A stretch of DNA of 64,000 nucleotides. Origin: Phoronis australis (taxonomy: Eukaryota > Animalia > Phoronida). The position numbers and the translations under genes are program-made. Below the pieces are notes generated by a model. It had not been told where the DNA came from. It worked only from the letters and a program-made list of their open reading frames with translations, and made no database searches. The DNA lies in the NCBI GenBank assembly GCA_002633005.1, contig NMRA01000010.1, positions 1,460,982 through 1,524,981 on the forward strand, read 5' to 3'. Below are positions 12,301-64,000 of this stretch, in pieces (the stretch's first letter is position 1; each line of letters opens with the position of its first letter).

Positions 12301-15300
12301 CATGATTTAGGGGGATGACCCTTCGCAACCCTTCAGCATTTTTCAAAATATGCAAATTAAGGTCGCCATTATGCAAAATTGAATTTTTGCTTATAATTTC
12401 CGTACCAAGCACTGCAGCCAGATAATTTTAAAGTTTTACCCATGTTTCCATGGTTAACAAATTTAATACTGCATGTTTTAGGTGAGTACATTGTCAATTT
12501 GCATAATTTATGCAAATTAAGACCGCCATTATGCAAAATTCTATTTTTGCTTATAATTTCCTTACTAAGCACTGCAGGCAGGTTATTTTGATGCTTTCAC
12601 CCATTTTTCTAAGGCCGCCATTATTCAAAATTTTACTTGTTCTAATAGCTATGGTACTGTACCAATCATCACAGGTGCATTATCATATTTGCACCTATGT
12701 TTCTATGGTCAACTGGTTTAATGAAATCAGTTTGCATGTTGTTGCGTGATAAATTTGCATAATTAATGCACATTAAGGCCACCAGTATTAAAAATTATTT
12801 GTTGCTTAAAGCGCCCTTGCCAAGCACTGCAGACGGGTTACTTTAATGTTTTCACCCATGCTTCCATGGTCAGTGAGTTAATGGACCTTGTTTGCTGGTG
12901 GATACAACGTGAATTTCCTTAATATATGCATAAATTAAGGCCGCCATTATTCAAAATTCTACTTAGTTTATACCTGAAATACCAGGCACCCCAAGTAAGC
13001 TATTTTAACATCTTTACCCAGGTTTCTGTGAAACCAGTTTGCAAGTTGTTACATGATGAATTTTAATATTTTTTTTAAAGTAATGGAGACCACTATTTCA
13101 AATACTGTTTGTGCTCTTAATTTCCTTACGGGCGTTACATGTAGATTATTTTCCAATATATCTCATGTTTTTGATAATTTACACAAATTACAGCTGCTGT
13201 ATTCAAAATTCTACTTGTGTTTATAACTGCTGCATCAGACACCAGAGGTTAGTTTTAAATATTTTCACCCATGTGCCAGTGGTCAATGAATTGAATGAAA
13301 TCTGTTTGCAGGTTGTAGCATGATAAATTTGCAGAGTCTCCTTTATATGCGCCCACATATTTAGATGTAGACGCATTATGCCGTCATGTCCGTTCGGCGT
13401 CCATCCGGCGTCCGTCCGGCGTCCGTCCCGCGTCCGTCCGACGTCCGTCCAGCGTCCGTCCGGCGTCCGTCCGGCGTCCGTCCGGCGTCCGTCCGGCGTA
13501 AGTCCGGCGTCCGTCCGACGTCCGTCCGGCGTCCGTCCGGCGTCCGTCCGGCGTCCGCTGCTCTATCTCCAAAACCCTTTGACATACGTTCATGAAATTT
13601 AGTACATTTGTTTCTGTTTCTGTTTTTGTGGTGACGTCAGAGGGTAGGCAACGGGATAGTCTCTGGCCCTCCTCCTTCCAGTATCGCACGCAATGTAAAT
13701 TTGGAGATGCAACCAAGTTCGTGCTGGTTACACACTCTTCGATCTTTTCCCCTGATACGAGTTTTTGCTGCATCTCCGTATTGCCATCCTCGCTCTATGA
13801 GGCGCTTTGTTGCCCATCTCTCCTGCTGTTGTATAATCTCGGCATCTTTAAGCCATTCACGCACTCTGGAGATTACATCTGCTGGTGTGAGGAGCAGGTC
13901 GGCAATCGGTTCTGCGATGCCTGCAAGCTCATCCGCCTTGACGTTGAATGAGATGCCACAGTGTTCTGGTATATAAACACTGGTGAAAAGACCAGTTTTT
14001 AGCCTGTTAATGAGGCTGAGGGAGTCTGTAAGTAGAAATGATCTGTCTGCAGGTGTTGTGTCCTGTGAGAGCCAGACTAGGGCGTCTTCATATGCTTCAC
14101 ATTCAGCTCTAAAAGAAGAGGATTTTCCAACCCATGCTGTTGATCATTCGAAGAGGCGAGTCCAAGCAACTGCTGTCCAAGCCGTAGTGTCATCTCTTAG
14201 TGAGCCGTCCGTTGCAACAGTGATTGTGGGAGATTGTTCTTCTAGCCATTCCAATACAGATGCTTGGTTGATACAGTCAGCTCTTTCCCGCCAATGACGG
14301 CCTCCAATCGCCATGGTGTTGTGGCTTTGGACCACTCTATGCCGTTGATGTTCTCCACTGGGCATACCTCTTCGACAAGCTCCCTAGCTCGGATAACCCA
14401 TGATTGAACTTTGGGTCCCATACCAAGGATGGGCTTCATCAGCTTAATCCACATCTCTTCTGTAGTCATAATATCGCATGGAACGTAGAGATTTACGAGA
14501 ATGTAGGCTCTTTTGTCTATTTGCAGTTTGATAGCTAGACCTTCTGCTGTTCCTTGGTATGTTGGGACTTTCAATTGGCAACTATCTGTGGCAGCATCGG
14601 CCAATGTAAGGAGACCCCTCTTTCCTTGGACAGTTCAAAAAAGACTTTGATGTCTAGTGGGTAGGATGTTTTTTGCTGCAATTTAATCTCCTGAATCACG
14701 ACGATGTTGTTTTCAGCCTGCAGTTTATCGATGGTTTCCCTCCGCCATTTGTGGCTTCGTGTATTCCATGAAACAATTCTAGTGGCCTTTTGGTTCATTC
14801 TGTCCCTTTTCTCTAATCTATGTTTCTTTCCTCCTCTTCTACCTCTGAAGCCCTTAAGCTTCGCTCTAATGATGTTCTCGTTTTTGTGTTGTGCGATCTG
14901 GAATCCAGTCGCTGCGTATTTATTACCCCGCTGTCCTGATAACCTAGGCCGCTAGTTTAACGTCTTAAATAACCCTGGTGGCTCAGTCGTGGTTACAGAC
15001 GGGCCGGTGAGGATCCTTACTGACCTAGGGCTGCCTAATTTAGAGCGGACGAAACCTCCCAATGAATTGAAATAGTCTTTCCTACTGCCACTTGCGACGC
15101 ATGGCCCTCTCGGTTAAAGGCCATAAAGAGAGGTTATAACCCGATCGCCGAAAGCCGCTACTTCTCTGTGCATTTCTGCGGGCGGGGCAGCTCACGCCCT
15201 TTTAAAAATTGTCAGCTGGCGGGTGGGAGTGTGACTCCTCCTACGCCCTTCGCCGTTAAAGTATGGTATGTAACCTTCTTCCGCCGTTGATTACTGACAT

Positions 15301-35492: not shown

Positions 35493-35562
35493 TCACTCAA
35501 TTCCTTTAGCGCGAAGTTCTTCCCTCACTCTAGCCAGATAGCCAGGATCAGGATAGCCAAAC
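35493..35562 (-). CDS. DTX3L: DTX3L-like last coding exon
   Basis: ctgtag|G TTT GGC TAT CCT GAT...GGA ATT GAG TGA ([22 protein letters not shown]); phase 2 matches the previous donor. Confidence 0.9.
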
Positions 35563-38500
35563 CTACAGAGAAGATAAATATGAACACCAAAACATCAACA
35601 ACATCAAAAAAGCAGACACGATTTGTGGAACAAAACATATTATATCACAATATTACCCTCGAATGGCAGATACAACCGTGCAATAACTCATAAAGTTATC
35701 TCACTAGTGAGATAACATTTTGGCGGGAAACTGAGGCTGGATTCGAACCCAGGGCCCGGTCTCCAATCTTTTTACTCGAAATGGAACTCGAAATTAGGTT
35801 TGACATTTTCTACTCTACTTTTGGGCGAACTCAAGATAAGTGTCTATTATTCTATGCTCGAGTACACAATAACTTACGAAGATAATTTATTGCCCTTAGT
35901 TCACAGTTTGTAAACCCAATATTTAAGCAATAAGTTCTAGTTTGAACTCGAAATTTCGAGTTTTTACTCGAGTTTGTAGCACGAATATAAGGGTCTTCAA
36001 GGGCAAACTTGAACTAGAAACTCCTATGCATAAACTATAATGTATTCGAGCACAAAAGGAGCAGAGAAATTGCCAAAAATAGTTTCGAGTTCGTTTCGAG
36101 TACAAAGATTAGAGACCGGGCCCAGGCCTCATGTGTTTCGAGTCGCCGACTTCACCACTACTCCTCTTGGGGCTAACAACCCTCGGGTGATAATTCTCCA
36201 AAATCCACTCGGGCTCTAGATAACGGGAGATAACGACTTTGCCATGTAATAATCTATATTTATACCACAATATTAGCGTCGAATGGCACTAAAATACAAC
36301 CGTGTAAAAACCCATTTGGCGGTTTCGCACCCGGGTCTCAAGAGTTTCGAGTCGCCGACTTTACCACTACACCACTCAGCGGCTGACGTCATCAAACGTG
36401 AAAATATAATACTTAAAGTCCTTGTTGCAAACTGCCCATGTGGTTCTAGTATCCGAAAATACTTACTACATAAAATCTTATTTTCGACACCCTTTTCTTT
36501 ACATTCTTTTCGCCTTTCTTGCCAAAAGCGACTTTTCAACCGTATTTGACCCTTTTCTCTGAGCGTATGATTACCGGTTGTCATCGGTTATTTCCGTACC
36601 CACATTTCCGGCTCATCAGTTCAGGAACTTGTCCTGAATGCCGCCATTTTTTCCTTGTAACTGAATGTGCTATGGCTTGCTCGAAAAGTCTTCATTATAT
36701 TGTTTTATTAGTAATATATCGTGATTCGTTTGCATATGTAGTGTATTTATAGTTTGTAGTTTGTGGTCGTTGATTTTTTTTGAAATGTTACGCGTACTTA
36801 GTATGTTAAAATAGCATTGGTGTTTAGTTCCTTACGTAGGCCGGTCGAACCTAGGAACCAATATGGGTCGAACCAATTTTTTTCGGTTTTATTTTTTTCC
36901 TCGTTTTGAAAAAGTACTTTGCTATCATCGGAAAGGTAGTACATTCTACTCAGTAAAAATCGAAAAAGTATCAAAATCGGGGCAAGCACTGTAAAGTTAT
37001 TGCAAGTTTTGTGGCGAAATTTGGGTCACTTTGTTTGGATCGCGTCGGCCATATTGGAGGACAGCGGGATGAGTTACGAGTTTAAAACTTTGTGTAAATT
37101 GTTTTCGCCAACAAATTACGGTGAAATTTAGTTAGACATATCTTTACTTACTATTCTGCACGATTTAGCAGTGTTCACCAAATTTCAGCCTCGCAGTTGT
37201 TACTCATTAAGTGATAAATGTGCTCACAATTCCCGTTGGACTTCGTCTCATTTCTGGCGGCACCTACAATGTCGACTTTTGCTGAACTGAAAGGCATGTT
37301 CAATCGGCTACTTTGTAATTTGTGAAGATTTAACGTTGATACATTTTGACAAACGTTGCTACAAAAAAGAAACTTTGTTCAATTTTCGTGTTTTTTGTGT
37401 TTGTGGCCAGCGACCAGTTAGGCCTAAGGGTAGTCTTGGCGCAAAGCTGCCTCCCGTTCAGTAACGCTAGGACCTCGCTAAAAAGCAAGACTTCGCGAGA
37501 ATACGTGAGATTTCGCCGTGTATTTTGAATAAGAACACGTGACTTTGACTAGGTTTTAGCTAGGTCCTAGCGTAGGTCCTAGCGTCTACTGAACGCACGC
37601 CTGTATAGGCCTACTAACAAGCTGTATTTTGACTATAGTCTTCACTGGTTGCTGGTGACTGAGGCTAACTAAAGTCTGCCGCGGCAGTGTTACACAGGAC
37701 TAACCAGCCCGTAATTTCATGCAAGTATCTGAAACTACCCTTGAATATATGCAGCATTTATCATTTGACCATTTTACTTCGACAAAACAGCTTGCAACCG
37801 CATGCATTTACCGTTCGCCAGTGTCTGGTCTCGATCCGCACCGGGTCCGATAGGCTGCGGTCCCGAGTCTGGCAAAATAATTTCTGTCAAAATTTATTCG
37901 CCACATTTCTTCAGCAAATTCCATAAAATTGTCCGTAGTTTGATTTTATCAAAATTAAGGCGCGCTGTCGATTTTTTTATCCCCGTTTGCTGGCTGGTAA
38001 CAGTACAGGCACTGCTCCAGTCGCACTGACGGCGTTTTCTCGGCCTGGGTTCCTGAATGAATTGTACTTCCGGGTTCGCGGCAAGTTCAAAATGGTGGTG
38101 TTTCTTCGGGTGCGAATCGTGAGTGGCGCGTTCATTTAAACTGTTTTCGAGTACGGATCGTGTATTAGTTATGGGGTAGGTACTTCTTGGATCCTTATAA
38201 CATCTTCTAACCATGTAATAAGGGTTAACAACGCGTGAGACAAGGACTTTAAATGAGCACGCGCAACAATCGCATGTTCAGCAAAGGGCATTGCACCGAC
38301 ATTTATACGCTATGAAAAATAAGACGCATAACTTCCATAAAAACGGTATTTTAATTCAGTGAAAGTTTTCTCTCGTGCGCTCTCACTTGTAAATCACCGA
38401 TCTCCAATTTGAATGCGCTTATCGTGTCGTCGGGATCCTTTGTCTTGAGCATTATCCTCAGTTATTAGTGGTAACCTACTTTAGCAGACGATATTTTCCC

Positions 38501-41500
38501 GGTCGAAACTTAGCGTGATAAAATGTGTAGTAAGCTATAATAATTGCTAAACCTAAATTTATAGATTCAGTTTATTTCCATCTCATTTAAATTTTCAATT
38601 GTTTTGAGTAAAAGCAAAAATAGCTCGGCTTTTCTTAAAAGGTCACGACCTCCGACCCCGGTTCTCTAAAATAGAAAGTAGTTACATAGCCGAGGCGAGT
38701 CGAGAAATGTAGATCGATTCATTGCAATGTTTTTCGTTTAATATGTGGTATAAATAGATTATTACAAGGCGAAGTCGTTATCCCCCGTTATCTAGAGCCC
38801 GAGTGGATTTTGGAGAATCAACAGCTTGTTTGTTTTCATGAAAACATAGGTGGATAGGTGGCATACGCATGCCAGATCATGCATAATTGATACGTACTCG
38901 TGCCCACTTGGAAAACCAGCGCAATTAAAACCTTGGTTGTATGCGTTTGTGGTGGTTTCCAATAGGTCGACACTTTGACTGAAGATGTAATGGCTGGTGT
39001 TTTTTTTTTTTTCTTTGAGTTGTGAGGGTTAGGATTCAAAATCAGTCGGGTATAGACCATAATCAATTATATGTATGCTTTCTGTCCTAAGGGGAGCAAC
39101 GCAAAGGGAGCCGTGGCTAACTTTCACGTAATACATTAGCATATTGTGATCAGAGAACGGATTCGATTAACACATTTAGGCCAGAGCTATTATTTTATTC
39201 TTGTAAAGTCCCACAAGCCCAAACCCAACATGGCACAGCAGGTATGGTCTACTGGGCATTTGAATTTGGAAGCGAAAACGAGCAAAAAACTAACATGGCC
39301 TACACCTCCTACAAACTGTGTCCTGGACTTGAAGCCGTGTGGATAAATTCTGCCACACTCACGTTTTTTTTCTAGTGATCTCTGTGTAAAGTCTTTTTCA
39401 AGCACGCTACACCAAAATGTCCTCTACGATGTGTTTTGGTCATGTTTACTGAACGAGGATAAAGTACACAGCATAATCGCAAACATTTTTATGTCGGTTC
39501 TCCACGCCACCTGTTGATCACATATTCATATTAATAGAACAACATTACCCTATCGGATCCCATGGGAGCAAACGACTGTAGCACAATGCAGTAAAGCAAC
39601 CATTTGAGTTCATTCGTAGATTACACCAAACGTTAGTCATTCAGGTGTAGAATCAGATGCCAGATGCAGTACCTGTTTGGATTGAGCTGTTATGTTGGAT
39701 ATTTATATAATGAGCTCCCCTAAACTTTTCATAGCACAAGTTGCAGTGAGAAAATTAATTAACTTGCACACAAATCACCTGTACTCGAAAATGTGTTTTA
39801 GACTTCAGTGGCGGTATAAGATGGTTGATGTTTCTGTAAGTCATGCTGCCATATACAGTCATAATTCCAGCTTCAAATTCAAATTCATATTTACTCAGAT
39901 GTTGTAAAGAAAGACATTTGTGAAACGCTATGGGGGTGAATTTATATTATTTTGTGCTTGTTCATCCCTAGATTCTTGATAATGTTTTATGGTTTACATG
40001 AGCTCATATTCATTTAGTCTAAAAATCTACTACAAGCTTTTGTCAGTGGCAGGTACTTTTCTATCTTCGTTCTGTATATATCGTTGATTTGCATTGCACG
40101 TGCTCGAAACGCACCATAAAACCACCGTACGCTTTCGTTCACAGCCAATGACCGTGGTACTAAGATGGTGAGCAGTCGTAGCGTTTACATGTTCGCGCGA
40201 ACTCATTGGATGCAATTACTAGCTTGTCAGTCGTGTGATAACCACCTAATGCCAAACACAGCATACACTGTTGCGAGCCAGAATTAGCGAAAACTGTAAA
40301 AGTTCGAAACCTGACAAATGGTATTCAATAGCGGATTTGCAGCGACGCCATATTGAAATTAGGTTAAAATGGTGCATTGTGGGTGCTGTGGTCAGGATTC
40401 TGAAAGCGGCCATAGTAACAAGCATAATACGCGGTATGAGCGCGCAGAAAACTTACGGCGGATACACTTGTGTTCCTGGCTGCTTCAAAAACAACAAGAG
40501 AGATAAAAATCTGAGTTTTTGTGTTCCCTGCAAACCAAGAACTTCGTGAAAATGGATAAACAACATTAGGAGAGCTAGGAGTAAGGGGAAATTTAGCGCA
40601 TTCAAACCAACGCGGAGCCATCTAGTAGGCAACACGTAGCCCCTCGGTTGGCCATATAGGGGCTACAATACTTCCATTCGCTTTCTGTATTCATTTCGTT
40701 ACTTCAGTGTATTTTAAATGGGCCGTGAACGGATTTGGGTTACCGATTTTGAGTTTTCACCTTGTCAATAATACAATCTACACATAAAACTATCATTTAA
40801 GAAACGCTTACTTTCATCATTGGTCCTTTTTACTTCTATTCATATCTTTGATGAAGCTTAGTTGTGAGAATTAAGTTGACTTTGGCGAAGAATTACAACT
40901 CCACTATTTTGGTTGCCGTTAATTTTATCACCGCGTGCGCGATAACCACAAAGCATGTCAACTGAATCCCGTGAGTTAGGCAAAGGTTAGCGCGAGACTG
41001 AGCGAAACGCGTGACGCTATCGCGCGACACTTGTAAAATAGCATGAGAAGGTATCGGGTGAAACTTGTAAAATGTGTGTCCCTTGGACTTTTTATTCGTC
41101 AACATGCGTAATTTCACGTAACTTCCTCAAAATGGCACCCGGTAACTGAGAGAAACTCGAGCAAACCGCGACAGATTTTCATCGATTTGTTTAAGTTTTG
41201 CTGACTAAATTGTATCCAGAGTCGTGGTTTTTATATGTGTTAATTATAACTCCGTGTTCCTATATGTATGGTTCATTTGATTTTATTTGCTGCATTTTGA
41301 AATGAGTAACTTTTTGTAAGGATGTACTATCGCCCCTGAATGCCTGCGGCATCCAGTGCGATGTAATTGCCTAGGGGGCCATCGTGTGTGCAGCGAACAT
41401 TTTCCTGGTGAAAAAAGACTTAATATGAGAATAACATTCCGACGGAGTTTCCTTATAAAATTAACGTCTCTAGCATATCCACGGCGAAAGCTACAAAAGT

Positions 41501-44500
41501 TAAGCAACCGGAACTCTCCGATTGTCTGAAACCGGAGGAGATTTCCGAAATCAACGCCGATAGCCCCAATACTGAACATGACGACAGTCGTGCCCTCGGT
41601 CACTGATCATAGCTGCGCTGTGTTTACGAGAGAGAGGACTTGCTTGGTATTATAAAGCAAAAAAATGAAACATGGTTTTTAGTTTGCAAATCACTCCAAA
41701 TGCACACACTGTCCAGCCTGCTCAAGACATGCCTGACCACAAGCTATCCCATGAGCCTTCGCGAAGGAAGTAACTCGCACATGCGCAATGCGTAGTTCGT
41801 CTGCGCTGCAAATCCGCTATTGGTCAAAAATGCTTCTAACTGGTTTGAGCATAAACGGCTTGTCGCCAGACGATTTCGACTAGAGCGCCTAATAGAGGGA
41901 AAGTAACATACTTACTTGTATTGTGACAGCTGACGCATTAAGTAAAAGTTCCCTGAAGGCAATACAATTAACCAAAACGCACAGGTGAAGACACCCGTTC
42001 TACACAATTTTCACTGCCTTGCTGCTCTTATTTACGCGTAAGTCTTCATACATGTTATTTACTTACGCAGTTGGTCCTCCTGTCAGCCTTGTTTTGTGGT
42101 GGATGTCGTTCCATATAACACAGTTATCGGCACCAGTTGTTACTGATCTACCCACTGTGAAGACCAGACGAGCATCAAAAGCCTTCCTTAACAATCTGGC
42201 AATTTCATTGCCTTCAGCCGTATTGGGAAGATATGCTGTCCGACTTGTGCCTGTGTATTTTTTTCCGGGATTGGGGTGCTCCTTCTGAAATTGTTATAAC
42301 GAAACTTTCAAAGAGGAAATTAGGATGCAGACATGGAAAGCTTCCTGCTTGAGGTATCGTGTAAAATGTCTGATAAGGTCATGCCAATACTCAAAGATTT
42401 TCCGATATTATCTTAGAAATGAAATAAGAAAATGTAAACCAAAACGTCTTTCTAGATAAAACTTGAAAATGAAGCGATGGCTACTAAACATCGGCTGACG
42501 CCTGGAGTTGCCCCACCGATACCATGGGGCAAAATACTGAGAGTAGAAACTAAGGCTTCCTTGTTCAGGTATCGTGACATCAACATTCCCTAAGTCAAAA
42601 CTTGATAGCTGGCCGCGACTTTGAAAGTGAGGTCAACGCTATCAAAATTAGATGATCACAGTGGCGGATCTAGGATATCACAAGGGGGGGGGCCCAACAT
42701 TTTGTTCGGCTGTAAACATTTGCGCAAACTGAACCACGATTGTAGATGCGCATAGCACCAAATGTGGGGAGGTCGGGAGGGGGGNNNNNNNNNNNNNNNN
42801 NNNNNNNNNNNNNNNNNNNNNNNNNNNNNNNNNNNNNNNNNNNNNNNNNNNNNNNNNNNNNNNNNNNNNNNNNNNNNNNNNNNNNNNNNNNNNNNNNNNN
42901 NNNNNNNNNNNNNNNNNNNNNNNNNNNNNNNNNNNNNNNNNNNNNNNNNNNNNNNNNNNNNNNNNNNNNNNNNNNNNNNNNNNNNNNNNNNNNNNNNNNN
43001 NNNNNNNNNNNNNNNNNNNNNNNNNNNNNNNNNNNNNNNNNNNNNNNNNNNNNNNNNNNNNNNNNNNNNNNNNNNNNNNNNNNNNNNNNNNNNNNNNNNN
43101 NNNNNNNNNNNNNNNNNNNNNNNNNNNNNNNNNNNNNNNNNNNNNNNNNNNNNNNNNNNNNNNNNNNNNNNNNNNNNNNNNNNNNNNNNNNNNNNNNNNN
43201 NNNNNNNNNNNNNNNNNNNNNNNNNNNNNNNNNNNNNNNNNNNNGCCTATGGATCATAACAAAATATTTCTGAAGCTCCTGCTTAAGATATCGCACCTGC
43301 AATATATCCCAAAAGTCAAATTTGATTTTCTCGCTGCAACCTCGAACATCGTGTCAAGATCACGAAATCGAATGCCGCCTGGAGTTGCCCAAACCTTACC
43401 GCGATACGTAAACGAAATGTAAACCTTCTTTCAAGGGATCGGTATTGCACGCCAACACTACTGTGTGCCTAAAGGGTGCACTGACGAACAGTCGTGGGGA
43501 CTATGCCCCAAAAGGTATTTTTGTTTGGCGTGGTGTGTTTATTTAGTTCATTCATCTTAGGGCACTAGAAATATTAAAAGATTATGACAATTTTCACTGG
43601 CACTTACTCCTTGGGTCCCATTCTGGAAATCATAGGTAAGAATAATCGCTCCCGTGCGAGCATAACCGTTCAAATGCAGATTGCGATCACGTCTAATTTT
43701 CATAGTTCCGTTGAGTGGCTGCGTCCCGGTGAGAATCCCGTAGACTTTATTACATATAGGACATGTTTTCTTTTGCTTAAACCACGCCGTAATACACTCT
43801 GTACAGAAAGAATGTTTGCAGTCTGGCAATACTTTTGGATCTTTTAATGTACTAACGCAAATAGGACAGTCATCTTCAGCATGAGATGTTGACGGATCCG
43901 GGGACTTCATGACGACATCTGACCAAGACGGATCCCGCTTATCAACACTAGGTCTGAAGGGCTTGAAGTCATCTTCTGTTTCTCTACTTTGAAGAGCTTT
44001 AGCTTGCACCACATCGGTGTTGTTCTCTTCATGTTGACCGAGTACATTGATATGTGAAGAAAACAACTTCGATTCACTTTTCAGACCTCTCCCACCCATC
44101 TCAGCGGAACTCCCCCTACCTGGCATTTCCGACGAATGGTCGTTCGAGTCTTCATACCGGTTACCTGAGTCGTATGGCCCGCGTTTTTCGTGCGAAAGTA
44201 CGAACGTTGTTTTCGTGCTTGAGCCTTTGTCTTCACTATTCCCCCATGCTTCGTCACTTTGGGTTCGTTTATGATACGCACCAAATACTTCTGCTACGCC
44301 ATCAGTGGCACGACTATCTTTATTTACAATTATGATTTCGTTTAATATCCGACTTCCTACAGTCGTCCGGCTGAAGTTTACGATTACCTCTTTTAGTGTT
44401 TTCGCACACTCGGGGACGGAGAAGATCCCTACTCCTGTAAATAAATTTGAAAATTGGAATGTCCAAAATCATAATAACTGTGAGTCGCCATGAAATGAAA

Positions 44501-47500
44501 CGATGACAAAACCAATATGAAATATCCAGCACTAGAAAATGTAACCGGCTGATTAAAATGCATGCTTTAGTAAGACGATCTACATGCACATCTGATGTTT
44601 AAGCAAGTTGTTCAGCTCCAATGACAATACCCATAACGTAAAACCGAGGTCTGTAGGCCTACGGCAGGTAAAATGAATGGAAATCTCTGTTGACCATTGT
44701 TCAACTGTTTTGAATTATGCTCCATTTGAGTCAGAGTTGAATGCAACTTTAAATCGCTAGTTGTTTACAGAAAGACCTTGAAGGCAAGACGCCGCCAAGT
44801 GTGCGGAGCCACGACTGCCAAGATTTTGCCCAGAATTTATAAGAATTGAAATAGGTTCTGTCAGATACCTTTAGTCGCGGTTGTGTGTGTCGGTATAAAG
44901 AAAATAGTCTTCCCATAAAAGGGTTATCAATTGGATTATTGACACCTTCCAAGTTGAGTCATCATCTTCCGAAAGATGTCGCAAAATTTTAGGAAATGAC
45001 GCGTGCTCATGTCACGTGTGCGACAGACATTTTTGTGACAATAGGCAAACAAATGAAGTTCATTAGATTGTTTTTCACTCAAGCGGCTGCAACCCGCTGC
45101 AAGGTGAGTGTTGATTGACTCCTAGATTTGCATGCGCCTGCTCCGCTCGCTAGCTCTACATGTTGATATAAGTTTCAGGACGAGGTGACGAGCAGAACTA
45201 TACCCGGGCTGTAGGAAATATCGGGGATGTAACGGAGCTCAATAACGTAGTGCTACCAAGCTTTATTTTGGCGAGTCTTTACACTGCTAGCTGACCGGTT
45301 ACGTCATAACCCGCAGTATCATACAAAGGCCTTGCTAACTACATTTTGTCCGGCGGTCATGTTCAGTCCCCGGCGGTCCTGTTTTATGGTGGGGCGGTCA
45401 TGTTTCTAGGTGCGTCAGTCCTATTTTCTGGTGTGGCGGTCCCATTTGATCCCCGGAGGTCCTATTTTGGGTGAGTCAGTCCGATTTAGAGGACCGGCGG
45501 TCATGTTGTTTCTAACTCGTGTTTATAAGAATTGAAATGGGTTCTGTCAGATACCTTTAGTCGCGGTTGTGTGTGTCGGTATAAAGAAAATAGTCTTCCC
45601 ATAAAAGGGTTATCAATTGGATTATTGACACCTTCCATTTATTGATGCGGCTACACTGTATTCACGTCTATTTATGTTTGCACTGGAATTCATAAAATGA
45701 CTTGAATTTGTAAAGAATTGTTCCGTAAGTGTCTGGGCAAAAAGAACACCTAACAATAACTCCAGTTTTTTTAAAACTTTAAGGGTGATGCCAGTAGCTC
45801 CATTATACAGCCTTGGTCATACCTATCGTACACGCACTAACGGTCGATTCAAATATTCACATCGTTGTGACATACCGCGGTCCATCATCGCCACCGCATT
45901 GTTCTGCAATTAGATTTTCGCGACATAGCATGCATGCCAGTTCGTGACATATAATGTCAAGTGCTTGACCCGTTTAGCCCAGGGCCTGTTTCTGAATGTT
46001 TTTCGAAAATAGCACAATGATTTTCCTGTCTTAACTCACGATTGTAATTTTCAACACTTTGTTTCGCACGGTAACACTATCGCTAAGTGTCAGAGTAAAA
46101 GCTACCAATCAATCGGACTCAACATCATGTATAAACATTTTCAAACCATTACCGCAACAAAAGTTTTAACGATATTTGATCTTATGAAACATGTTTCGTG
46201 GTCGCAGGTGCTACAACGCACCAGTGGACGCGGAAGAAGTATTATATGTAAGAACAATCTGACCCCCTTGAGAGCAAACCTCCAACCAAAGCTCGTCAAA
46301 ACCTTAAACTTCTGAAATTCTGAAGATATAAATAATTAAGTGCCCTGAAAATGAAACTTTTAATCAGTATTATGCTATAAAAAGATTAGCCGCGTCGCAT
46401 TTACTCACCAGTTCCAATGAGTGGGACTGCAACCGATTTTACTTCCAACGTGGTATTTCCCAAATTGAGGACATTGTAAAATGTACGTTGGAGGTCTGCA
46501 TACTGGTCATCCTTCCTGAAGTATTTATTTGTTGGTACAACGGCGTGGATTACATACCAACAAGTACTTAGTAGTTTCCCAGTTGAGTCCTGCTCAATGG
46601 CTTCAGCGTCCACTATTAAACGTCTTGATCTCTGCCTGCTTTCAACTATCTGTCTGGTCATTTTACCAAACTTGTCGCCACCTGCAGAAGCAATTGCCTG
46701 GGAAATTCCCCCAGCATTACTTAACTTGCAATCGGTGGGGTTTACTATGGCACCTACTTTAACTTTAGTGATGTCATCAGTTAGCATGCGGACAACCAGT
46801 CCTTCAGGTGTGGTAAATGTATACCGGTCTTCCACTTCTGAAGCGAGGGACGTTGGAAGCGTATCCTTTTGAAATTCGTCGACGATCTTGCGAGTGGTTG
46901 CGGTGTCTATATTTACCAGGTGAACCGTGGACAGTATCCTAGACCAGTGACAGCGGGAGAAGGCGAAGACAGCTTGTTTTAGTTGCTCTGCACACATACT
47001 GACAGGAACGCCAAATATACCTGACAACAGAAAGCCAATCAGATTTTTTCCCGTAGCGAAAAAATCCAGTTATCACTTAAAATGACTTGGCAATGTATCA
47101 ATGAACAAAAGTGAGTGAAATTATAAAATTTACAAACAAATTTTCTACGAAACAATAAAATCAAATTATTCCTATCATTAAAAAGTCAAGTTTCCACTTA
47201 AAGTAACAGATTTAAATTGCTAACATTAAAATAGAGTGGACATTGGACATTTTTTTCTGTTAAAATCAGTTTTTATCATACCTGAACTTATAAGTGGAAT
47301 AGCTACATCTTTCACTTCCATCTTGCTATCTGCCCACCGGAGGACGTTCATGAAGGTCTTCTGAAGAATTGCCAGGCATTGCTCCTTGTCTCTGTAATCG
47401 TCCCACCTCGGACCAACAGCGTTGATAACAAAAAAAGTATTCAGGACAAGTGCCCCGGATGCATTCTGATACATGACATCACCATCCCTCATTGGGCCAT

Positions 47501-50500
47501 TCTGATATATGTAATCTTCACTCTCTCTGTCAAAGCAACGTCCAGCAGCTCTTGAAATGGCTCCAGCTACACCACCACCGTGATTCAAGCGTCTGTTCGC
47601 AGCGTTACATATAGCTCCTACTTTGATTTTTGTGATGTCCGCAGAATATATTTCGACACGTAATCCTTCTGGTGTTTGCTTACAAAGCGTTTCAGCTTTA
47701 GCTGGACTTTCAGGTTTCTGAACAATTTCACTTTTTTCAGGAGGGCGTCTCCCATGACGACTGCTTTTCTGCTCTATCTTGAAATGCTTTCGGAGCACGA
47801 CTTGGACCTTTACAGCATCGTCTTCCAGACCTAGAATCCCAATCTTCTTTTGAGAACATAAATACACTTCGACGTCCTCAGAGTTGTTCTTTTTCAGAAT
47901 TTCGTCGACTTCCTTTTGTCTGTATTCTACAGACGAGCTGCTGAGATCAAGGAAAAATGTTCTCAAATTCTGTAAAATACGACCATAAATGCTTTCCATT
48001 TCTTTTATCACCACAGCGTCTGCAGTCAGACGGACTTCAACAGTACCCTCATATTCTTGCAACTTGCTCACGTTGATCGTGTGAGTGGAGCGTAAATCTT
48101 GATATTCTTTGCTGTATTTCACCATGTAAGAAAATGCCTTTCTGTCAAACGTCTTTACTTCAGGATGATCGAAACCAGATTCTATTCCTGAAGTTTTCTG
48201 CATTTCAGAAACATGATCTTTACTATCTTGGCGATTTCCAAATTGTTCCGAAAAATCAAGTGAATTGTGTGTAGATTTACTGCTTCGATGTTCAAACGGA
48301 ATATTCAGGTCATTTTCAAAATGCATACTAGATGTAGCAAGTAAGCGTTCAATTTCTTTCCTGGCTTCATGAATTTTCTCAGATTGTCCCACTATTCTTA
48401 CCAGTGGATACTGGTTATAAAGACAAGCAAATTCTTTGCAGCTACGGGAAACCTGTTCAATTATTTCCTCCACGTCCGATCTTGTTACTTTGTCATGCAC
48501 GACGTTTACGTGTGTTGTCTTCAATTCTTGCTGCAGTGTTGTGGTGCGGTGTTTTATCAACTGAAACAATGTTTCCATCGAATTCTTATCAAAAGACCAT
48601 ATTTTGAAGGCTATCTCGTTTAACACGTCAGTTAAATGGATGTCAACTCGTACGTCTTCTCTACTGTTTAATTTGGAGTATTCGCCAGGATAGAAATGCC
48701 TCCAAAGCAACCATATGTCAAGCGCCGTGTACGCTGTTGTTGATACGACTTCAGGTTGCTGCACGTCTTCAGTAGTCTCAGTTTCCGATTTAGAGCTCGC
48801 ATATTTCCCAGAAGCTTCTACATCACTTGCTCGAACAGTTGAGCCGCAGTTTCTCTCAGATGGACCGCGCTGTGAGTACTTGTTGTCTTGGTTTTGATAA
48901 AGTACTACCCCTAATCGCTCGCCAACAGTGAATTTTGGATCACTAGCATTTTGGGTTCCAGATGTCTTGTTGCTCGACTGTTCTTTTCCGCCACGAGTTC
49001 CCAAAGATGTCGCTGTATGAATTGATGTTAGCTGCTCCTGAAATATCCGTTTTACCTCACGAACACTCTTAGAATCTGTAGATCTTCCAATTATCCGAAT
49101 CAAGACCCGAGAATCAACATAAAGAAAGACGCCTGGGAATTCTCTATTAATCGCCCCAGTCATGCTTTCCACTTCAGTTTCTGACACCTGATATTGTAGA
49201 AGATTGACGTGAGAGAAAAACGCAATCTTTTTGATGGTAGATTTCACCGTCTTCAGTCTAAGACATAGTTCTTCTAAAAGTTCATGTTCAGCAACGATCT
49301 CTACGGCGACTTTGTCGAAAGTATCTCCGGGCTGAATGGTTGTAGTATCACCGGCAACAGATATAAAATGAGAGTAGTCCTCTTTGTAAAAGTTTTTCCA
49401 AAACAAAAATTTGTCCGTGGACATCATAATTGTTTTAAGTATCTTACCAACAATGGCGTCTTTACATTTAGAGCTGCTACCACCTTCATTTACCACTGAT
49501 GTATTAGCACTCTCGTGTGTTGCAGTCATATTGTATCCACTTGCTTGTTGCTCATGCTGCCCATACGCCTGGCCATGTGTGCGAGGACTATCTGTCTTGC
49601 TCTCTTTTGTGTGTAATTTGTCTTCGTTCCCGCTCGCCGCATCTTGTGACTGAACAACTTCAACGACTTTGTCTTGTAGCTCCGGTTTTTCATCCAGCAT
49701 TAATACAGAGTTCTGAGAAACTGCGCGTGTATTTTCGTTCGAGGCTTCAGTACCAATCTCCGTGCTCATTAGTTTTGACCGAGTGATTTCATCACTGTCA
49801 CGCACGGCTACATTTTTCGAATGTTGTAAATCCGATCTAGAAATATTGTCATCATCTCGCTCGGAGCGGCGTTTGTCTCTCCTCGTACTGTTACCAGCCG
49901 TAGACATTTTCTCGACATTTTCCAATGTGTCTTCATATTGTTTACTTGCAAATCTTTCTTGATTCTTTCTTCTTCTGTATGAGTCCTGTACCTCTGGTGC
50001 GTTCAACTTCTCTTGAAGTTTCTTAGTGTCCGGAAAGTCACCAGTCGTGACAATGTACATCTCTTGGTTTTCTTTTGAGTATGAGCACCAACACGTCTCT
50101 TTGTGCATGTTTTGGAATTTTTCAGCGATTCGTGTCAAATCCTTTAGCCGCAGCCCCGACGAGCCACAAAAGATTTGTCGTTGTTTTACTTTAGAGAAAA
50201 GATCGTCAAGTTTTTCTCTCAGAGAATCAGAGCACTTGTTTCTGGAAATGAAGCACACATTTTTCTTGAAAGTGAACGAGATTTTTGACGAAAAGCTCTT
50301 CTGTAGACTTTGAATTTCCTTTTCCAGTACTGTCTCTTTGAATCGTCGCATAACGAACGGTTGGACAAAAGATGGCAATGAAATGCAAACATCTTGGGAA
50401 GATTCCTTGTCATTGATTACCTTTTCCTGCTCGGATATGTCATCTGGGGGATTTCCGTCTGTTCTAATAGAGCTATCATCACTTTGACGATTTGTATCAA

Positions 50501-52707
50501 TACGTTTTTGGTTGTCGAAGCTCTGGAGTGTGTTTGGTCTTGAATCTCTCCTCTTCGGTTCGCTTACGTGATCGGGAACATCTTGCTTGTGTTGTTTGTC
50601 TTTGGGAAATTCAGAGCAATCTTTTTCCCTGTCTCTATTATCCTTGAACTCCTTTACTGTAATGGAACATTTAGATATGGCTTTGTTCCTTGTTGGCTGT
50701 TCTGATGTCGCCGTGTCGTGGTTGCTGGTCATTTGATCTCCACAATCCACTTCATTCCCATCCCTGTCAAAGTTTCCAGTAGCTTTTGACCTCTGTTCTC
50801 TCTCAGCCCCAACTACCTTCTTTTGGTCTACCGCGAGAAATTTTGCGATTTCATTTTCAAGTACTCTGTGTGCATTTTGAACTTGATAGAAAGACCCTTC
50901 GATTACAATTCCTGAGTCTTCTTCCATTATTTTGGACGCATGAGATTCCTTTTCTAGGTATTTCAAAAAATCAGAAAGTTCGTTATTGTGGACTTCTTTT
51001 AAATCTGCAGTTAATTTCTTGGTAACAGTTGCCCTTACATTCTCGAAAACCTGAAATGAAGTTTTTTCGGAGTTTACAATGGTGACGATTTTAAAAAAGC
51101 ATTAAAAGCACAGCTAGCACAACCCCCTACAGCATTAGCTTATACTCCACAGTCATGAAGATCAACGCGCCAAAATGCGGCCTAAGTACCACATCCAGGA
51201 TATTGTACAAACGTCTAATTCGCCTGATTTTAGAAATTCAATTATAACTTTCTTCTGACAAATCTCAAATCAAAACAGATCATTGGAACACGTGCCTGTC
51301 CCCGACAATAGGACAAATTTCTTGACTGTATGCGCATATTGTTCATTCGCAATTTCGATTTAATTGTGATCAGACAGGCGAGCTCATGTCAAACTGTAGT
51401 TACCTGAGGTTGTACCTTTACAGTGACTTCTGCCTTGGCGGCCGAGCCAGGAATGTCAAGCTCTTGCTTTCGAGATGCTGCACGTTTAGCGACTGAAAGA
51501 AAGAAAATACAAACTGTTCTCATGTGGTTCTTAAGCTTCGTTCCCTTGCAGCTTGGCGGCTTACAGCACACGAAATGTGTCCGTTTTCCGAGACAGTACA
51601 CACAAGGTTATTTGAAAACTCATTGAATTACATATACTAATTTCGTTACCTGTTACAAAATCTGCAAAGCATATGAAGGGTGTGTTTACTCATCCGTGGA
51701 CGCCTCCACAAAGTGACGGCTCAGTTGAACTCTTTGCCGGATAACGCATGGCATTACCTAGCATATAACCTCGTTTGTTAAAAATCTTGGTTTGAACGCT
51801 ACCCTTAAAAAGTTGTTTCTCGTGATTTTCTAGGAAGACTCTTTTAAAGATGTTTTTTCGGTTTCACATCAGTTAAAAACTTATCATAAAACTAATTTTA
51901 ACGTAAGTTAGTTCAGTCGAAACTTAAGCCCAAATAATGTTCCTTCAATAAAACTCCGAATACTTAAATTCACATTAAACTGGATTTAAGAACATTTTCA
52001 GGTTCAGCTGTAGCTAACTGTGGCGGCTCCACTATTTTGGTTCTTGAAGAAAGGGATAGAATGACGCAGTGCACATCATACGCGTTTGCGACGCAATTTA
52101 AAAAGATAGCCAAATAAACTCCAAAGCGTCTTCTTTCTAATTGTCATCAGGTTGAACGAGTGAGTCCGTACGCACTTTTAAAATGTGTCCAATAGTTTTA
52201 AAACACAGAACACAAAGGATAATTTGTTAAAATGCTCCAAATTGAATGAAGCTGCAAGAATTTATCTTAGACAACATGTAAGTATTCCTTTGAAACTTTT
52301 TCGTCAAAAATACTTCGATTTTCCAACGTCAATATCTTTTACTTATACTTTTATCTGTAGGGTGTGTACAAACAAGTAAAGCAACTAGGAAATTATACGA
52401 CAGAGCAGCATGTTTGGTGATTTTCATTTTGACAAATAACACAGTTCAACCATGCTGCGGTTACAAGAATTGAGGTTTCAAGTACTCAAAGGAATGTGCG
52501 GGAAAATGTGGGATGACTATATATTGTACCTTCAAGATCCTCAAATATGACCATCGCTTCATCTTTTCGCTCATTTGGTGTCAACGGATAAATCACTCGA
52601 ATTACTTCTCCACCACCGTTGCTTGGCTTTTGGAAATGGATTGTTAGCAGCTCCATGGTAATACCTTGCGGCACACCAGAAACTATGATCACTGGTTTTT
52701 CCGCCAT
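35493..52707 (-). CDS. DTX3L: DTX3L-like Deltex E3 ubiquitin ligase with two internal macrodomains (RRM-KH-like repeats-Macro-Macro-RING-DTC), ~1920 aa; gene span
   Basis: Exons 52707-52530, 51492-51404, 51050-47282, 47020-46409, 44434-43608, 42284-42067, 35562-35493 are all GT-AG and total 5763 nt in frame from ATG to TGA. C3HC4 RING (CPIC...CKHSFCTEC...CPIC) and DTC ([39 protein letters not shown]). Confidence 0.9.
35650..36485. repeat. Dispersed repeat with tRNA-like A/B boxes and palindromic arm; related copies at 57200-57640 and 38745-38820
   Basis: Shared blocks cataaagttatctcactagtgagataacattttggcggg, ggattcgaaccc, ccactacaccactcagcgg and ataattctccaaaatccactcgggctctagataacgg. Confidence 0.8.
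35753..36122. mobile_element. PIF/Harbinger-like MITE
   Basis: TIR GGCCCGGTCTC...GAGACCGGGCC with CAG duplication; interrupts a repeat that is intact at ~57270-57300. Confidence 0.8.
40327..41821 (+). mobile_element. TIR DNA transposon relic with THAP-domain fragment
   Basis: 19-bp perfect inverted repeat CAATAGCGGATTTGCAGCG (40326-40344 / 41804-41822); 40436-40630 reads CVPGC.NN.RDKNLSF..FP..ELRE.WI.NIRR with frameshifts. Confidence 0.72.
42067..42284 (-). CDS. DTX3L: DTX3L-like exon, Deltex C-terminal domain
   Basis: [55 protein letters not shown]; this reading frame is absent from the ORF track. Confidence 0.92.
42785..43244. other. Assembly gap (460 N) inside a repeat in DTX3L-like intron 5
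   Basis: Run of N; left flank includes a CAGTGGCGGATCTAGG MITE-like end at ~42659. Confidence 0.99.
43608..44434 (-). CDS. DTX3L: DTX3L-like exon: end of macro B, linker, RING, start of DTC
   Basis: ttacag|GA GTA ([22 protein letters not shown]) reads open into the RING and GTQPLNGTM...YDFQNGTQG|gtaagt. Confidence 0.9.
44836..45637. repeat. 116-bp direct repeat pair (44836-44951, 45522-45637) flanking a ~570-bp insert with GCGGTC-rich units
   Basis: The two copies differ at one position by eye. Confidence 0.88.
46409..47020 (-). CDS. DTX3L: DTX3L-like exon: end of macro A and most of macro B
   Basis: GIFGVP...[29 protein letters not shown]...[10 protein letters not shown]|gtgag. Confidence 0.9.
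47282..51050 (-). CDS. DTX3L: DTX3L-like giant exon (3769 nt): KH-like repeats, disordered linkers, macrodomain A
   Basis: 1246-aa ORF extended to the acceptor at 51050; ends [29 protein letters not shown]...AIPLISS G|gtatg. Confidence 0.92.
51404..51492 (-). CDS. DTX3L: DTX3L-like exon 2, RRM end
   Basis: tttcag|TC GCT ([12 protein letters not shown]...VTVKVQPQ)|gtaact; phase 1 to 0. Confidence 0.78.
52530..52707 (-). CDS. DTX3L: DTX3L-like first coding exon, RRM-like
   Basis: [13 protein letters not shown]...[15 protein letters not shown]...AMVIFE; acceptor before 52718; donor G|gtaca. Confidence 0.82.
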
Positions 52708-53034
52708 GCCAGGCACCCCTAAAACAAAACGCAATAAATCGGCTATAAGCGTCTTCTAAGACCTCGGTAAAACATTTGTTGTTAGTTTAACGTTTGCACA
52801 TAGGATACCTTGTATTGTCGTGAAATGAAATGAAATCTAACTTGTTCGGGGGTAAAATACAATAGATTAGCGCAAAGCAGAAGGAATAAAGAACTTTCGT
52901 AAGAAAATCACAAGTTACATTAACACGCAGGTTAGTAATTCAACAAAAAAAAAACTCGCAAAACACTGCCATCAGCAATGAGCAGGGTTGTCAATCTTCC
53001 TCCATCACGGTCTACTCGGGCGTTCTCCATAACA

Positions 53035-60600: not shown

Positions 60601-62046
60601 TTATATTTTGAAGTAAATCCATAACACTGGAAAATGATTTGTTACACTAATTTGTTACTTGTTGTAATATAATTCCTATTGCCCTGACCTACTTGGAGGC
60701 CGTCCTTGTCGCTAATGGTCAGTTCAAACATCCAAGATTTATTGCGTGGGGGGAATTAAGTGTGAACGTCAGAAATGTCATATGGAGTCAGTTGTCCTAC
60801 TTGTGTCCGTTGGCTAGTATTTTATACCATTCAGATGTCAATTTTAAAAATTTTTGATGATACAGACGGAAGTCACTGTCCTAATTGTGATCACACTACT
60901 TGCAGATAAGTTGAAGTTGCTCTGGCGGCTTTATTACCAATAAACTCTGCTCTGAATGGATTTCAAGGCATGCCTCTAATTCCTCATCTCTTTGAATGCT
61001 TGGCCAATTTAAATAGAAACATAACATAGTCTGGCGATGTGAATATGAAGTAGGCAGCAAATTGCCAATTGGAATGTTTTTACCACCTAGTGTTGCGGCG
61101 AGAATGCTCTTCAAATCACTGAACCGCGTCCAGTAAGTGTCGTGACGTGGTGCTGGTGAATAACATTGCATGATGCACGCCATGTGAGCTCGCGAGGTAC
61201 GTAATTGATGCAGAGATCACCTATTTGCATATTTTTGGTTTTCACATTTATTAGTTGTCAACTGATGAATAGAACTGCATTTTGTTAAGTAGATGATGTT
61301 CAAATAGCATTCGTCGTTCAGTTCCTGCTACAGATTAGCATAGTAAGGAACACGCAAATACATTTTTAGTTTTGGTTTATTATAATTGATCGAGTGCTTT
61401 CGTTCATTGATTCACAGTTGATTGAAAAAATCCGAGACAACACTTCAAAAAATACGCCGACGCATATTATGCATCCAAACACATTTTTATTTTCTGCGTT
61501 TTTATGATCAGATTTCAAAACAACATCTTGTCAACAGAGTGGACTAAATCACGGCCTTCTCTGGTGTCCACGGTAGATGTATAGCTTACAACTACCCCAG
61601 GCTACAGCAATGGTTTTGTCAGTGACAACTGGTATTGGCTACACAGCTTACTCACGACTTGTTATTCTACAGTTCCGGGCCCACTTACTTTACGAGAGGA
61701 CCTAGCACAGTCTTTTATTTTCAAAGTCGCATTGCGACATACTCTTCGAGAATTGCCATTGGGTTTTCAGGTCATTGCGACATATTGCGGTCCACCATCA
61801 TCACCGGATTGTTCCGCACTTTTAATTTTCGTGAAGGGACCTAAGCCGGGCTAGCGAATAAAATGCAACCACCGGTTACTCTTGTCAGTTGAACAGAGGG
61901 AGAGATACTGAAGGTTTCGACAATGTAGCAGACCCTATTTCATGCAAAATTTGGCATCGAAGGCATCCAAGTCAACGAAAATCGACAGGCCCTCACAGAA
62001 TTGTATCCCATGTTTTCACTTTGTTTTTTTCTGATCTCAGACTTAC

Positions 62047-62226
62047 CCGCTGCCTTCTCAACTCTTTGCACAGGTACTGGTACTTTCCAGGAAACGTGTT
62101 CCATCATCCGCCCGAAGTCAATTTCACAATCGAACCCATTTTCAGAAAACTTAACTTTGGATTCTCTCTTTGAGTAAGCCTGCTCAATCTTCAAATTTGA
62201 CATACTCGAATAAAGCGCCCATTCTT
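62047..62226 (-). CDS. Second PARP14-like paralog WWE exon (homolog of 25988-26167); no downstream ART exons found
   Basis: WALYSSMSNLKIEQAYSKRESKVKF...IDF; G|gtaagt donor. Confidence 0.82.
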
Positions 62227-62439
62227 CTGCAAAAAAATATAAAATGGTGTCAATTTGTAACCGCTGTGATGTTTTTAGACCCTAGACCCAGCAGTGCTTA
62301 GAAACAATATCAGTAAAATAACTCGAACAAACTACAGCTTTAGAAATTACCCAGTTGACATATATGTACATTATTGATATACTTTACATGAAAAGTTAAG
62401 CCAGATTGGTAAATTGATCCAGCTAGAAACTGAACATAC

Positions 62440-62653
62440 GATTTTCCTCAAATATCCATTGAACATGTTTTGCTAATAATTCCGCCTGTTCTTCCAAAAT
62501 GTTACGTTGATCTGCTGAATGTAAGATTTGTTTAATTTCGTCTTTAGCCTTTAAAACACATTCCGTTCGTCCTCGAATTCGTATACGGTGGATTCTTTCG
62601 TTCAGGTCAATCCTCACATGATGCTTGAGGTCGATAGCCCTTGCAGTTGCAAT
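62440..62653 (-). CDS. Second PARP14-like paralog exon (homolog of 25582-25801)
   Basis: RIHRIRIRGRTECVLKAKDEI; in-frame 6-nt deletion relative to gene 1. Confidence 0.82.
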
Positions 62654-63168
62654 CTGAAAAGAATTCTTGATTAGTGCCTTTCAAAAGAGTGCCCAATAAC
62701 TCGAGATAGCCGTTTTCGTTAAAAAGAGGTTGACTTGCCAGTAGACTATAGTAACGAAACAGGACGCAGTGTGGCCTTATGGATTAAGTGCCAGTTTTCT
62801 TTACCTAAGGTTTTGGGTTCGCTTCACACTGAAGCACATTGGCACTTCTCTAGCTTGAAGGTCAATGTTTATCATTTATCAATAAAGTATTTAAATGTTT
62901 CAGGGAATCAGGGAAATGGGCCCACCTGAGCTGTCTGCGTACGTCTAGTACGTGTACCAGTAAAACTGCATGCAGCTTTTATTGTAAGGAAAGGTTACAG
63001 TTTCGAAACAATCCAATTGTTTATAATGACAATGACTAGTGAGAGATTTCTTAACATAGCTACTGTTATCGTGACTATAAGGCCACTTTTGAATATTCAA
63101 ATTCTCAGTAAGGTTTACCGTTGTTATTAAAACATATAATAAATTATGTTCTCCGTAAACACACCAAC

Positions 63169-63395
63169 CTCGTCTTTAGTGAGCAAACGTATGGCTGCGT
63201 ATTCCTTGTCCAGACTTCCATCCATAACTACGTCACACAGCTCGTCTTTGCACAACTTTTTGATTTCTTCAATCGCTTTTGTAATGTCACTGTCCTTGCT
63301 CCCGAATATTCTTATATTGGTTTCCAACAATTGAGGAGTAGAATGGGGTACACCCTCTTCGTCGTCATCAGAACCAACTGTGGAGGTCCACGCCC
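63169..63395 (-). CDS. Second PARP14-like paralog, KH-like exon (homolog of 24833-25062)
   Basis: IRIFGSKDSDITKAIEEIKKLCKDELCDVVMDGSL; same splice sites and phases. Confidence 0.82.
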
Positions 63396-64000
63396 CTATC
63401 AAGGAAAGAACATACACTGTAAAATGTAGGCTGTTTGAGACTTTAGGGTTAGAGAGTCAACACACGGTGGAAATGGGCCATACGATTATCTTTGGATCAG
63501 TGCTCATAAATTCGCAGAAAAAAAGATTATCACCTTGGCGACTTTAACAGTTTTGAATTTCAATTTATTATGAAGTGTTTATAATCAATAGCCCGGATTT
63601 AAAGATCGCTGCGGTTTCCGGGCATAGTTTTATTTCATTATTTTATTGTGTAAATTATTAAAAATGTTTAAAGCGAATGATCACAAAGATTGTTCAGCCC
63701 AATATATGAACAATCTGAACAGACAGAAAAACAGCCCCACACAATCAAAAATAAGGCTGAAAAAATGGGGTGTAAAAATAAACGAACTAGATGAATCGGC
63801 CTACAAGAAAAATGTCAAATTTTTTCCACCAATTATTTCCTCAAAAGCAAATGTAATACAAAGAAGTTGAAAGTTTTATCAGTTTCTGTTACACAATGCT
63901 TGCACATTCATATTACCTACCTCGAGAGGCAAAAGTTACCAATTCGGTGGTCTTTTTGAACAGTTTTCAAGCTACAAACTTCACACATTTTTGGGGGCCC

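Follow-up and report, generated by a model that had tools for sequence, protein, structure and literature searches.

Can one animal protein carry both macrodomains, which handle ADP-ribose, and a Deltex-type ubiquitin ligase, and what would such a chain do with the ADP-ribose marks that it meets? The question is raised by a 64,000-nucleotide stretch of the Phoronis australis genome (the window; GenBank assembly GCA_002633005.1, contig NMRA01000010.1, forward-strand positions 1,460,982 to 1,524,981), in which a gene spans window positions 35493 to 52707 on the minus strand. The original prediction described its product as a single chain with tandem macrodomains and a DTX3L-type RING-DTC ligase. 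This description is supported, and the catalytic His and Glu of the ligase are intact, with activity predicted from the sequence. On balance, we favor a reading in which a DTX3L-type Deltex ligase with two macrodomains in cis is likely a self-sufficient editor of mono-ADP-ribose marks.

The seven in-frame minus-strand exons first proposed, with their RRM, macrodomains, RING and full DTC, are borne out by splicing and by Pfam searches, which were run on single exons. All introns have GT..AG ends, and the spliced sequence of 5763 nt encodes 1920 amino acids (aa) with no internal stop, ending in ELRAKGIE and a single terminal stop. The chain runs in the order RRM, macrodomains A and B, C3HC4 RING and complete DTC. 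Exon 1 (coding part, 52530..52707) supplies the ATG and the first part of the RRM (Pfam RRM_PARP14_3, E = 7.8e-6), and its N-terminus can be aligned from residue 1 with a hemichordate homolog (E = 1e-19). A splice acceptor ending at 52719 likely marks a 5' untranslated exon upstream. Exon 2 (51404..51492), placed by its GT-AG ends and frame, completes the RRM. Exon 3 (47282..51050) encodes low-complexity stretches, repeated alpha/beta units and, from 47666, the first 128 aa of macro A with D1227, N1241 and G1249. Exon 4 (46409..47020) finishes macro A (to 46866; I1347, F1348) and begins macro B (from 46802; D1442). The end of macro B (to 44277), a 134-aa polar linker, the RING (43868-43752) and the start of the DTC all lie in exon 5 (43608..44434). 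Exon 6 (42067..42284) contains the DTC core with H1887 (Pfam DTC, E = 5e-34), and exon 7 (35493..35562) the DTC end with F1899, E1913 and the stop. The remaining single-exon Pfam scores are E = 1.2e-19 and 7.3e-14 for Macro and E = 1.3e-10 for zf-C3HC4.

Our own macrodomain and DTC profiles were also placed on the window. Positions 124-174 of the macrodomain profile match 44438-44283 (E = 3.7e-8), a segment whose open frame is also that of the RING; this bears out the earlier claim that exon 5 joins the end of macro B and the RING without interruption. An N gap of 460 bases (42785..43244, no strand) lies inside intron 5. The DTC is nevertheless covered continuously: exon 5 accounts for Pfam DTC positions 1-41, exon 6 for 39-111 and exon 7 for DTC profile positions 109-131, and nothing is lost across the gap.

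The RING is followed directly by a complete DTC at the C-terminus, the arrangement that identifies a Deltex E3 ligase. H1887 corresponds to H582 of DTX2 and H707 of DTX3L, and E1913 to E608 and E733; the two residues are 26 positions apart, and F1899 aligns with Y719 of DTX3L. Residues H582 and E608 of DTX2 are taken for this comparison from PMC7615817 (here and below, papers are cited for what the available parts of their text state). The His/Glu pair is retained in 121 of 148 macro-DTC homologs, and the best PDB match of the DTC is DTX3L (E = 1.1e-24). The absence of a WWE domain and of the two-residue AR insertion that DTX1 and DTX2 have in the DTC, together with a short C3HC4 RING, places the protein in the DTX3/DTX3L subclass as delimited in PMC11467253. 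The frame ends after the DTC, and a C-terminal ART domain is missing. The distance between macrodomain and RING, 134 aa here, ranges from 12 to 547 aa in 136 cases, and in a structural model of a coral homolog (pTM 0.48) the linker is unstructured. Judging from this range and this model, the linker would be a tether rather than a fixed interface.

The N-terminal region agrees in part with what had been claimed for it. The RRM is confirmed by Pfam (26.3 bits against a cut-off of 24), and exon 3 does contain two 140-aa repeats (49451-49023 and 48752-48333, E = 4e-10). Their KH label is unconfirmed, as all KH scores fall below significance. A KH profile gives the repeats at best 6.8 bits compared with 6.6 bits in 200 shuffles, Pfam KH reaches E = 0.018, below its cut-off, and a two-row AlphaFold model (pLDDT 53) returns Foldseek matches to KH domains at a weak E of 0.2-0.3. 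There are homologs with a recognized KH_DTX3L domain.

RNA reads establish that the gene is real, spliced and expressed. They come from four runs (X1-X4, the last three from the same study) and were taken from 90% identity. Junction 46409/44434, by which macro B continues into the exon of the RING, is found in an X1 contig, in nine reads with seven starts in X2 and in two reads with one start in X3, and is not seen in X4. Junction 42067/35562 is found in all four runs. Junction 43608/42284, which spans the N gap, occurs in an X1 contig only, where three letters differ, with one synonymous change. These are three of the four junctions that the original prediction had singled out; the fourth, 47282/47020, has no reads among the joints listed for the four runs, and neither have 52530/51492 and 51404/51050. 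In X2 and X3, reads cover exon bins 43518-44691 and 45866-51148 from a single strand (about 0.5-15x).

These data bear on the suspicion that separate macrodomain and Deltex genes have been read as one through an artifact of assembly or gene modeling, or that the locus is a pseudogene. Such an error would fit the N gap in intron 5, the three junctions without reads among the joints listed and the near lack of exon reads in X4. However, the end of macro B and the RING share one exon, spliced reads link exons 4-5, 5-6 and 6-7, the 1920 codons contain no stop, and over a hundred homologs have the same order. The suspicion is thus largely refuted, and we regard it as very improbable.

Several features of the reads stand apart from this issue. 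Depth over exons 3-5 is 2-15x in X2 and X3, whereas X4 has almost none, which points either to expression that depends on tissue or condition or to an allele that is divergent or missing. Read identity to the window is mostly 90-99%, and exon 5 occurs in X1 in two or more versions; alleles or paralogs may contribute to the reads. High-copy repeats with reads on both strands occupy parts of the introns (35700-42000, 42344-42930 and 44692-45865), and a THAP-like finger can be recognized by eye at 40250-40549 on the plus strand, where Pfam has no match.

What the two macrodomains might do is suggested by their residues. The best PDB match of macro A is MD1 of PARP9 (E = 7.7e-17), and it also matches MD1 of PARP14. 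A published rule expects hydrolytic macrodomains to have Asn or Ser and Gly flanking loop 1 and a hydrophobic followed by an aromatic residue in loop 2 (PMC10221186). On our alignment this rule passes eight of eight PARP14 MD1 sequences and none of 16 MD2 or MD3 sequences. Macro A (D1227, N1241, G1249, I1347, F1348) has all four features. It is accordingly a predicted eraser and not just a reader, and the PARP9-like reader role originally assigned to the macrodomains is not supported for it as stated. Macro B departs from the rule: D1442 occupies the column of the catalytic Asn, and a two-residue insertion shifts its loop 2. Because its adenine-binding Asp is kept while the catalytic Asn has become Asp, macro B is predicted to bind without cutting. 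A viral macrodomain with the same swap keeps binding, and its hydrolysis is down 100-fold (PMC13307864). Exon 5 begins at tandem acceptors (44428-44434); splicing to the one 6 nt downstream would remove the insertion and leave macro B with a canonical loop 2. This downstream acceptor was considered and rejected: the reads use the upstream one, with an intron of 1974 nt.

Comparable states recur among the 148 homologs. At least one rule-passing macrodomain occurs in 99 of them and none in 49, where the counts, like those that follow, include relatives that share states and do not represent independent events. Among proteins with a single macrodomain, the hydrolase motif is kept in 50/93 and fails in 37/93. 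Several macrodomains in a row are found in 55 of the 148; of the 55 last domains, 41 fail the rule, 5 pass it and 9 are gapped. The order with a hydrolase first and a noncatalytic domain last occurs exactly in 24/55. Asp at the Asn column is present in 26/55 last copies, compared with 8/74 earlier copies and 15/93 single ones.

The mechanism that we infer from the exons, domains, residues, expression and wide non-vertebrate spread of this gene, all of which are directly observed, would run as follows. A PARP14-like enzyme, such as the product of a neighboring gene, would likely write the mark. Macro B would hold the mono-ADP-ribosylated target and tether the ligase through the flexible 134-aa linker, and the RING-DTC would reach an ADP-ribose, probably other than the one buried in macro B. 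The RING would bring E2~ubiquitin, and H1887 and E1913 would activate the ADP-ribose's 3' hydroxyl (or that of a 3' adenosine end). Macro A would hydrolyze ADP-ribose or ubiquitin-ADP-ribose and limit the signal in the manner of MD1 of PARP9 and PARP14. These MD1 domains remove ADP-ribose (PMC10499325, PMC11251020) and strip ubiquitin-ADP-ribose from nucleic acids (PMC10810221), and PARP9 MD1 dampens the PARP14 signal (PMC11251020). The self-targeting, ADP-ribose-directed E3 that was first envisaged thus survives in its placement of macrodomains and ligase on one chain; its reader-only role and its merger with PARP9 are not supported as stated.

The macrodomains could instead act independently of the ligase. 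Macro A would then be a brake on PARP14-type ADP-ribosylation and macro B a decaying copy, and the RRM and N-terminal repeats would select lysine or nucleic-acid substrates for the RING-DTC. The isolated RING-DTC of DTX3L suffices for ubiquitylating ADP-ribose and nucleic-acid ends (PMC10810221, PMC11467253), the linkers between macrodomain and RING are long and variable, and the hydrolase motif kept by 50/93 single macrodomains would destroy the substrate of the ligase rather than present it. However, the recurring order of hydrolase first and noncatalytic domain last (24/55) and the recurring Asn-to-Asp change (26/55) suggest selection more than random decay. We hold this alternative to be unlikely, though not to be dismissed lightly.

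The proposed writer lies on the plus strand of the same window. A complete-looking PARP14-like gene (1-29361) with RRMs, KH, three macrodomains, WWE and PARP lies in tail-to-tail orientation to the Deltex gene, with 6 kb between their ends. The His and Tyr of what we take to be its ART motif are visible by eye. One of its introns contains broken frames (13637-14951, minus strand) that resemble non-LTR retrotransposon endonuclease and RNase H, although Pfam finds nothing there, and an 11-bp tandem repeat lies at 13388-13557. Upstream of the Deltex gene, an inverted copy of the neighbor's KH8-WWE exons (61940-63528, minus strand) has 72% DNA identity to them over 1.5 kb; the KH-WWE piece of this second PARP14-like copy covers 61940-63456. 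On its sequence the copy is a truncated PARP14-like paralog or pseudogene, because a profile search of the window found no PARP catalytic exon between it and the Deltex ATG. A gene model with read-through from its WWE exon to exon 1, for which the phases would fit, was weighed but rejected: the Deltex ATG matches homolog starts and no read supports the joint. Human PARP14, PARP9 and DTX3L also share one locus (PMC13224862), but a single invertebrate locus would not prove a conserved linkage of PARP14 and Deltex.

The origin of the macrodomains was addressed with a tree of 55 rows, from which 34 of 89 had been dropped as long, redundant or unnamed and whose bootstrap had not settled. PARP14 MD2/MD3 served as the outgroup, and our trees contain neither PARP9 nor (bacterial) MacroD sequences. 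Macro A and macro B both fall on the MD1 side (99/97), outside a PARP14 MD1 clade that extends from coral to vertebrates, includes the MD1 of the neighboring gene and has no Deltex rows (96/97). A grouping of macro A with the neighbor's MD1 is rejected (AU p = 0.0004), as is one of macro B with MD2 (AU p = 0.000268), with PARP14 MD2 standing in for PARP9 MD2. The two macrodomains have the same intron position in loop 2, consistent with an intragenic duplication. Macro B is therefore likely an MD1-derived copy, and the pair would represent a convergence on the MD1+MD2 of PARP9 rather than that pair itself. The earlier proposal that the protein merges the roles of PARP9 and DTX3L is not supported as stated by these tests, and because both groupings are rejected an older, unsplit state is the likely explanation. 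The best matches of macro A and of the N-terminus are hemichordate, and the placement of macro B varies, with echinoderm rows in one tree and without support in the 55-row tree.

Alternatively, macrodomains could have joined Deltex several times by exon shuffling from neighboring PARP14-like genes, in which case the layout would be convergent. PARP14-like sequence on both sides of the gene would suit such an origin, as would the lack of a supported clade of Deltex macrodomains, a Lingula model with a PARP domain behind the DTC, and two limpet Deltex macrodomains that group with PARP14 MD2/MD3. The last come from Patella, where two Deltex proteins (P0256 and P0337) have three macrodomains; the first and third of P0256 group with PARP14 MD2 and MD3, which suggests a second capture from PARP14. 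Repeated shuffling is nonetheless at odds with the rejected pairing of macro A and its neighbor, with the absence of Deltex rows from the PARP14 MD1 clade and with a KH-macro-RING-DTC order common to sponges through amphioxus. We consider it improbable.

The architecture had been presented as one without a characterized counterpart, implying rarity, but it is widespread among non-vertebrate animals. When longer proteins were sought with the DTC exon, 30 of 38 hits of at least 400 aa had a macrodomain before the RING-DTC, among 120 of 645 hits listed. With a profile of 20 macro-RING-DTC proteins, a macrodomain precedes the DTC in 124 of 150 best representatives at 50% identity, a figure that is enriched by construction and should be taken as the minimum number of clusters rather than as a frequency. 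Named carriers include sponges (Oscarella, Sycon), cnidarians (Montipora, Oculina, Dendronephthya), molluscs (Haliotis, Patella, Saccostrea, Mizuhopecten, Mytilus), annelids (Owenia, Dimorphilus), the brachiopod Lingula, echinoderms (Antedon, Anneissia, Asterias, Amphiura), hemichordates (Saccoglossus, Ptychodera, Glandiceps), amphioxus (Branchiostoma) and a tunicate (Ciona), and nearly all are annotated as uncharacterized in RefSeq. The macrodomain is missing from all five named vertebrate DTX3L-like proteins of at least 400 aa (four teleosts and one frog). Three ESM Atlas clusters combine DTC and Macro, most commonly in nematodes, molluscs and cnidarians; one of them, of about 400-aa Macro-RING-DTC proteins, is commonest in nematodes, which are reported to be without PARP14 (PMC10221186). 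In Lingula P0006 (1918 aa) a PARP-like domain follows two units of KH-macro-RING-DTC; the gene model represents either a chain of writer, eraser and ligase or neighboring genes merged into one.

The macrodomain-bearing form of DTX3L is not new. Picard et al. 2026 (bioRxiv 10.64898/2026.04.23.720386) report that PARP9's appearance coincides with macrodomain loss in DTX3L, and their non-vertebrate DTX3L orthologs have the same RRM, macrodomain and RING-DTC on one chain. Both the architecture and its ancestral reading are thus in print as a preprint, the surprise of the Phoronis gene is limited for this reason, and on its sequence it belongs to a widespread and noted class. In the available text, the preprint gives the macrodomain one sentence and says nothing of hydrolase motifs, tandem copies or activity, and the available parts of PMC10789625, PMC8961608, PMC2770060, PMC13224862, PMC11251020 and PMC11467253 do not mention the architecture. 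Our literature search, which had most subscription papers outside its scope, found no biochemical study of a macrodomain-bearing Deltex. What our sequence analysis would add is the eraser motif of macro A, the putative MD1-derived binder with its Asn-to-Asp change, the repetition of this pattern in homologs, the intact His/Glu of the DTC and the PARP14-like neighbor.

Like human DTX3L-PARP9, the Phoronis system has an RRM, a DTX3L-type RING-DTC without the DTX1/2 insertion, the catalytic His/Glu, one hydrolase-type and one noncatalytic macrodomain, and a gene beside PARP14. It differs in having the macrodomains in cis, the second derived from MD1 and not MD2, no ART domain, and a length of 1920 aa with long polar inserts. 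With PARP14 it shares an RRM, repeated alpha/beta units, macrodomains with a hydrolase-type MD1 and an opposing catalytic module at the C-terminus, whereas RING-DTC replaces WWE-ART and the macrodomains fall outside the PARP14 MD1 clade. DTX1, DTX2 and DTX4 also have an ADP-ribose-binding module in cis with RING-DTC, but theirs are WWE domains, which bind poly-ADP-ribose and include no hydrolase, and their DTC has the AR insertion (PMC11467253).

Several observations weigh against the editing that we favor. Residue rules predict activity and do not prove it, and macro B is long-branched as well as carrying the loop 2 insertion, so that binding may be lost too. Erasing would not be essential to the family, because 49/148 homologs are without a hydrolase-motif domain and 37/93 single macrodomains fail the rule. 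Deltex macrodomains form no supported clade, and the two limpet domains lie with PARP14 MD2/MD3. The RING-DTC tree is poorly resolved, with 23 label changes, many short or partial rows among those scored as lacking a macrodomain and no supported clade that holds the Phoronis protein. Names were looked up for 30 of the 135 new representatives, and macrodomain-bearing vertebrate forms may exist. Three of the six junctions are without reads among the joints listed.

PARP9 is limited to jawed vertebrates (PMC10221186), and the likely ancestral animal state is one MD1-type macrodomain on DTX3L, which would have disappeared from jawed vertebrates when PARP9 assumed its role; the Phoronis gene's second macrodomain would be a later copy. 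A further-reaching reading, which we offer tentatively and consider rather doubtful, is that Macro-Deltex was an ancestral animal ADP-ribose editor that combined eraser, substrate trap and ubiquitin writer in one chain and was PARP14's partner, with a genomic link to it, well before vertebrates arose, and that a PARP9-like pair was rebuilt independently in several lineages by MD1-type duplication and the catalytic Asn-to-Asp change. If this reading is true, these proteins would be natural single-chain tools for finding out what PARP9 macrodomains do for DTX3L. With the predicted eraser, the predicted trap and the ligase united in one natural chain, it becomes testable domain by domain how they steer the ligase and whether they feed or oppose the ubiquitylation of ADP-ribose. 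Such a chain would also link ubiquitin and ADP-ribose in sponges, corals and molluscs, all of which are without PARP9.

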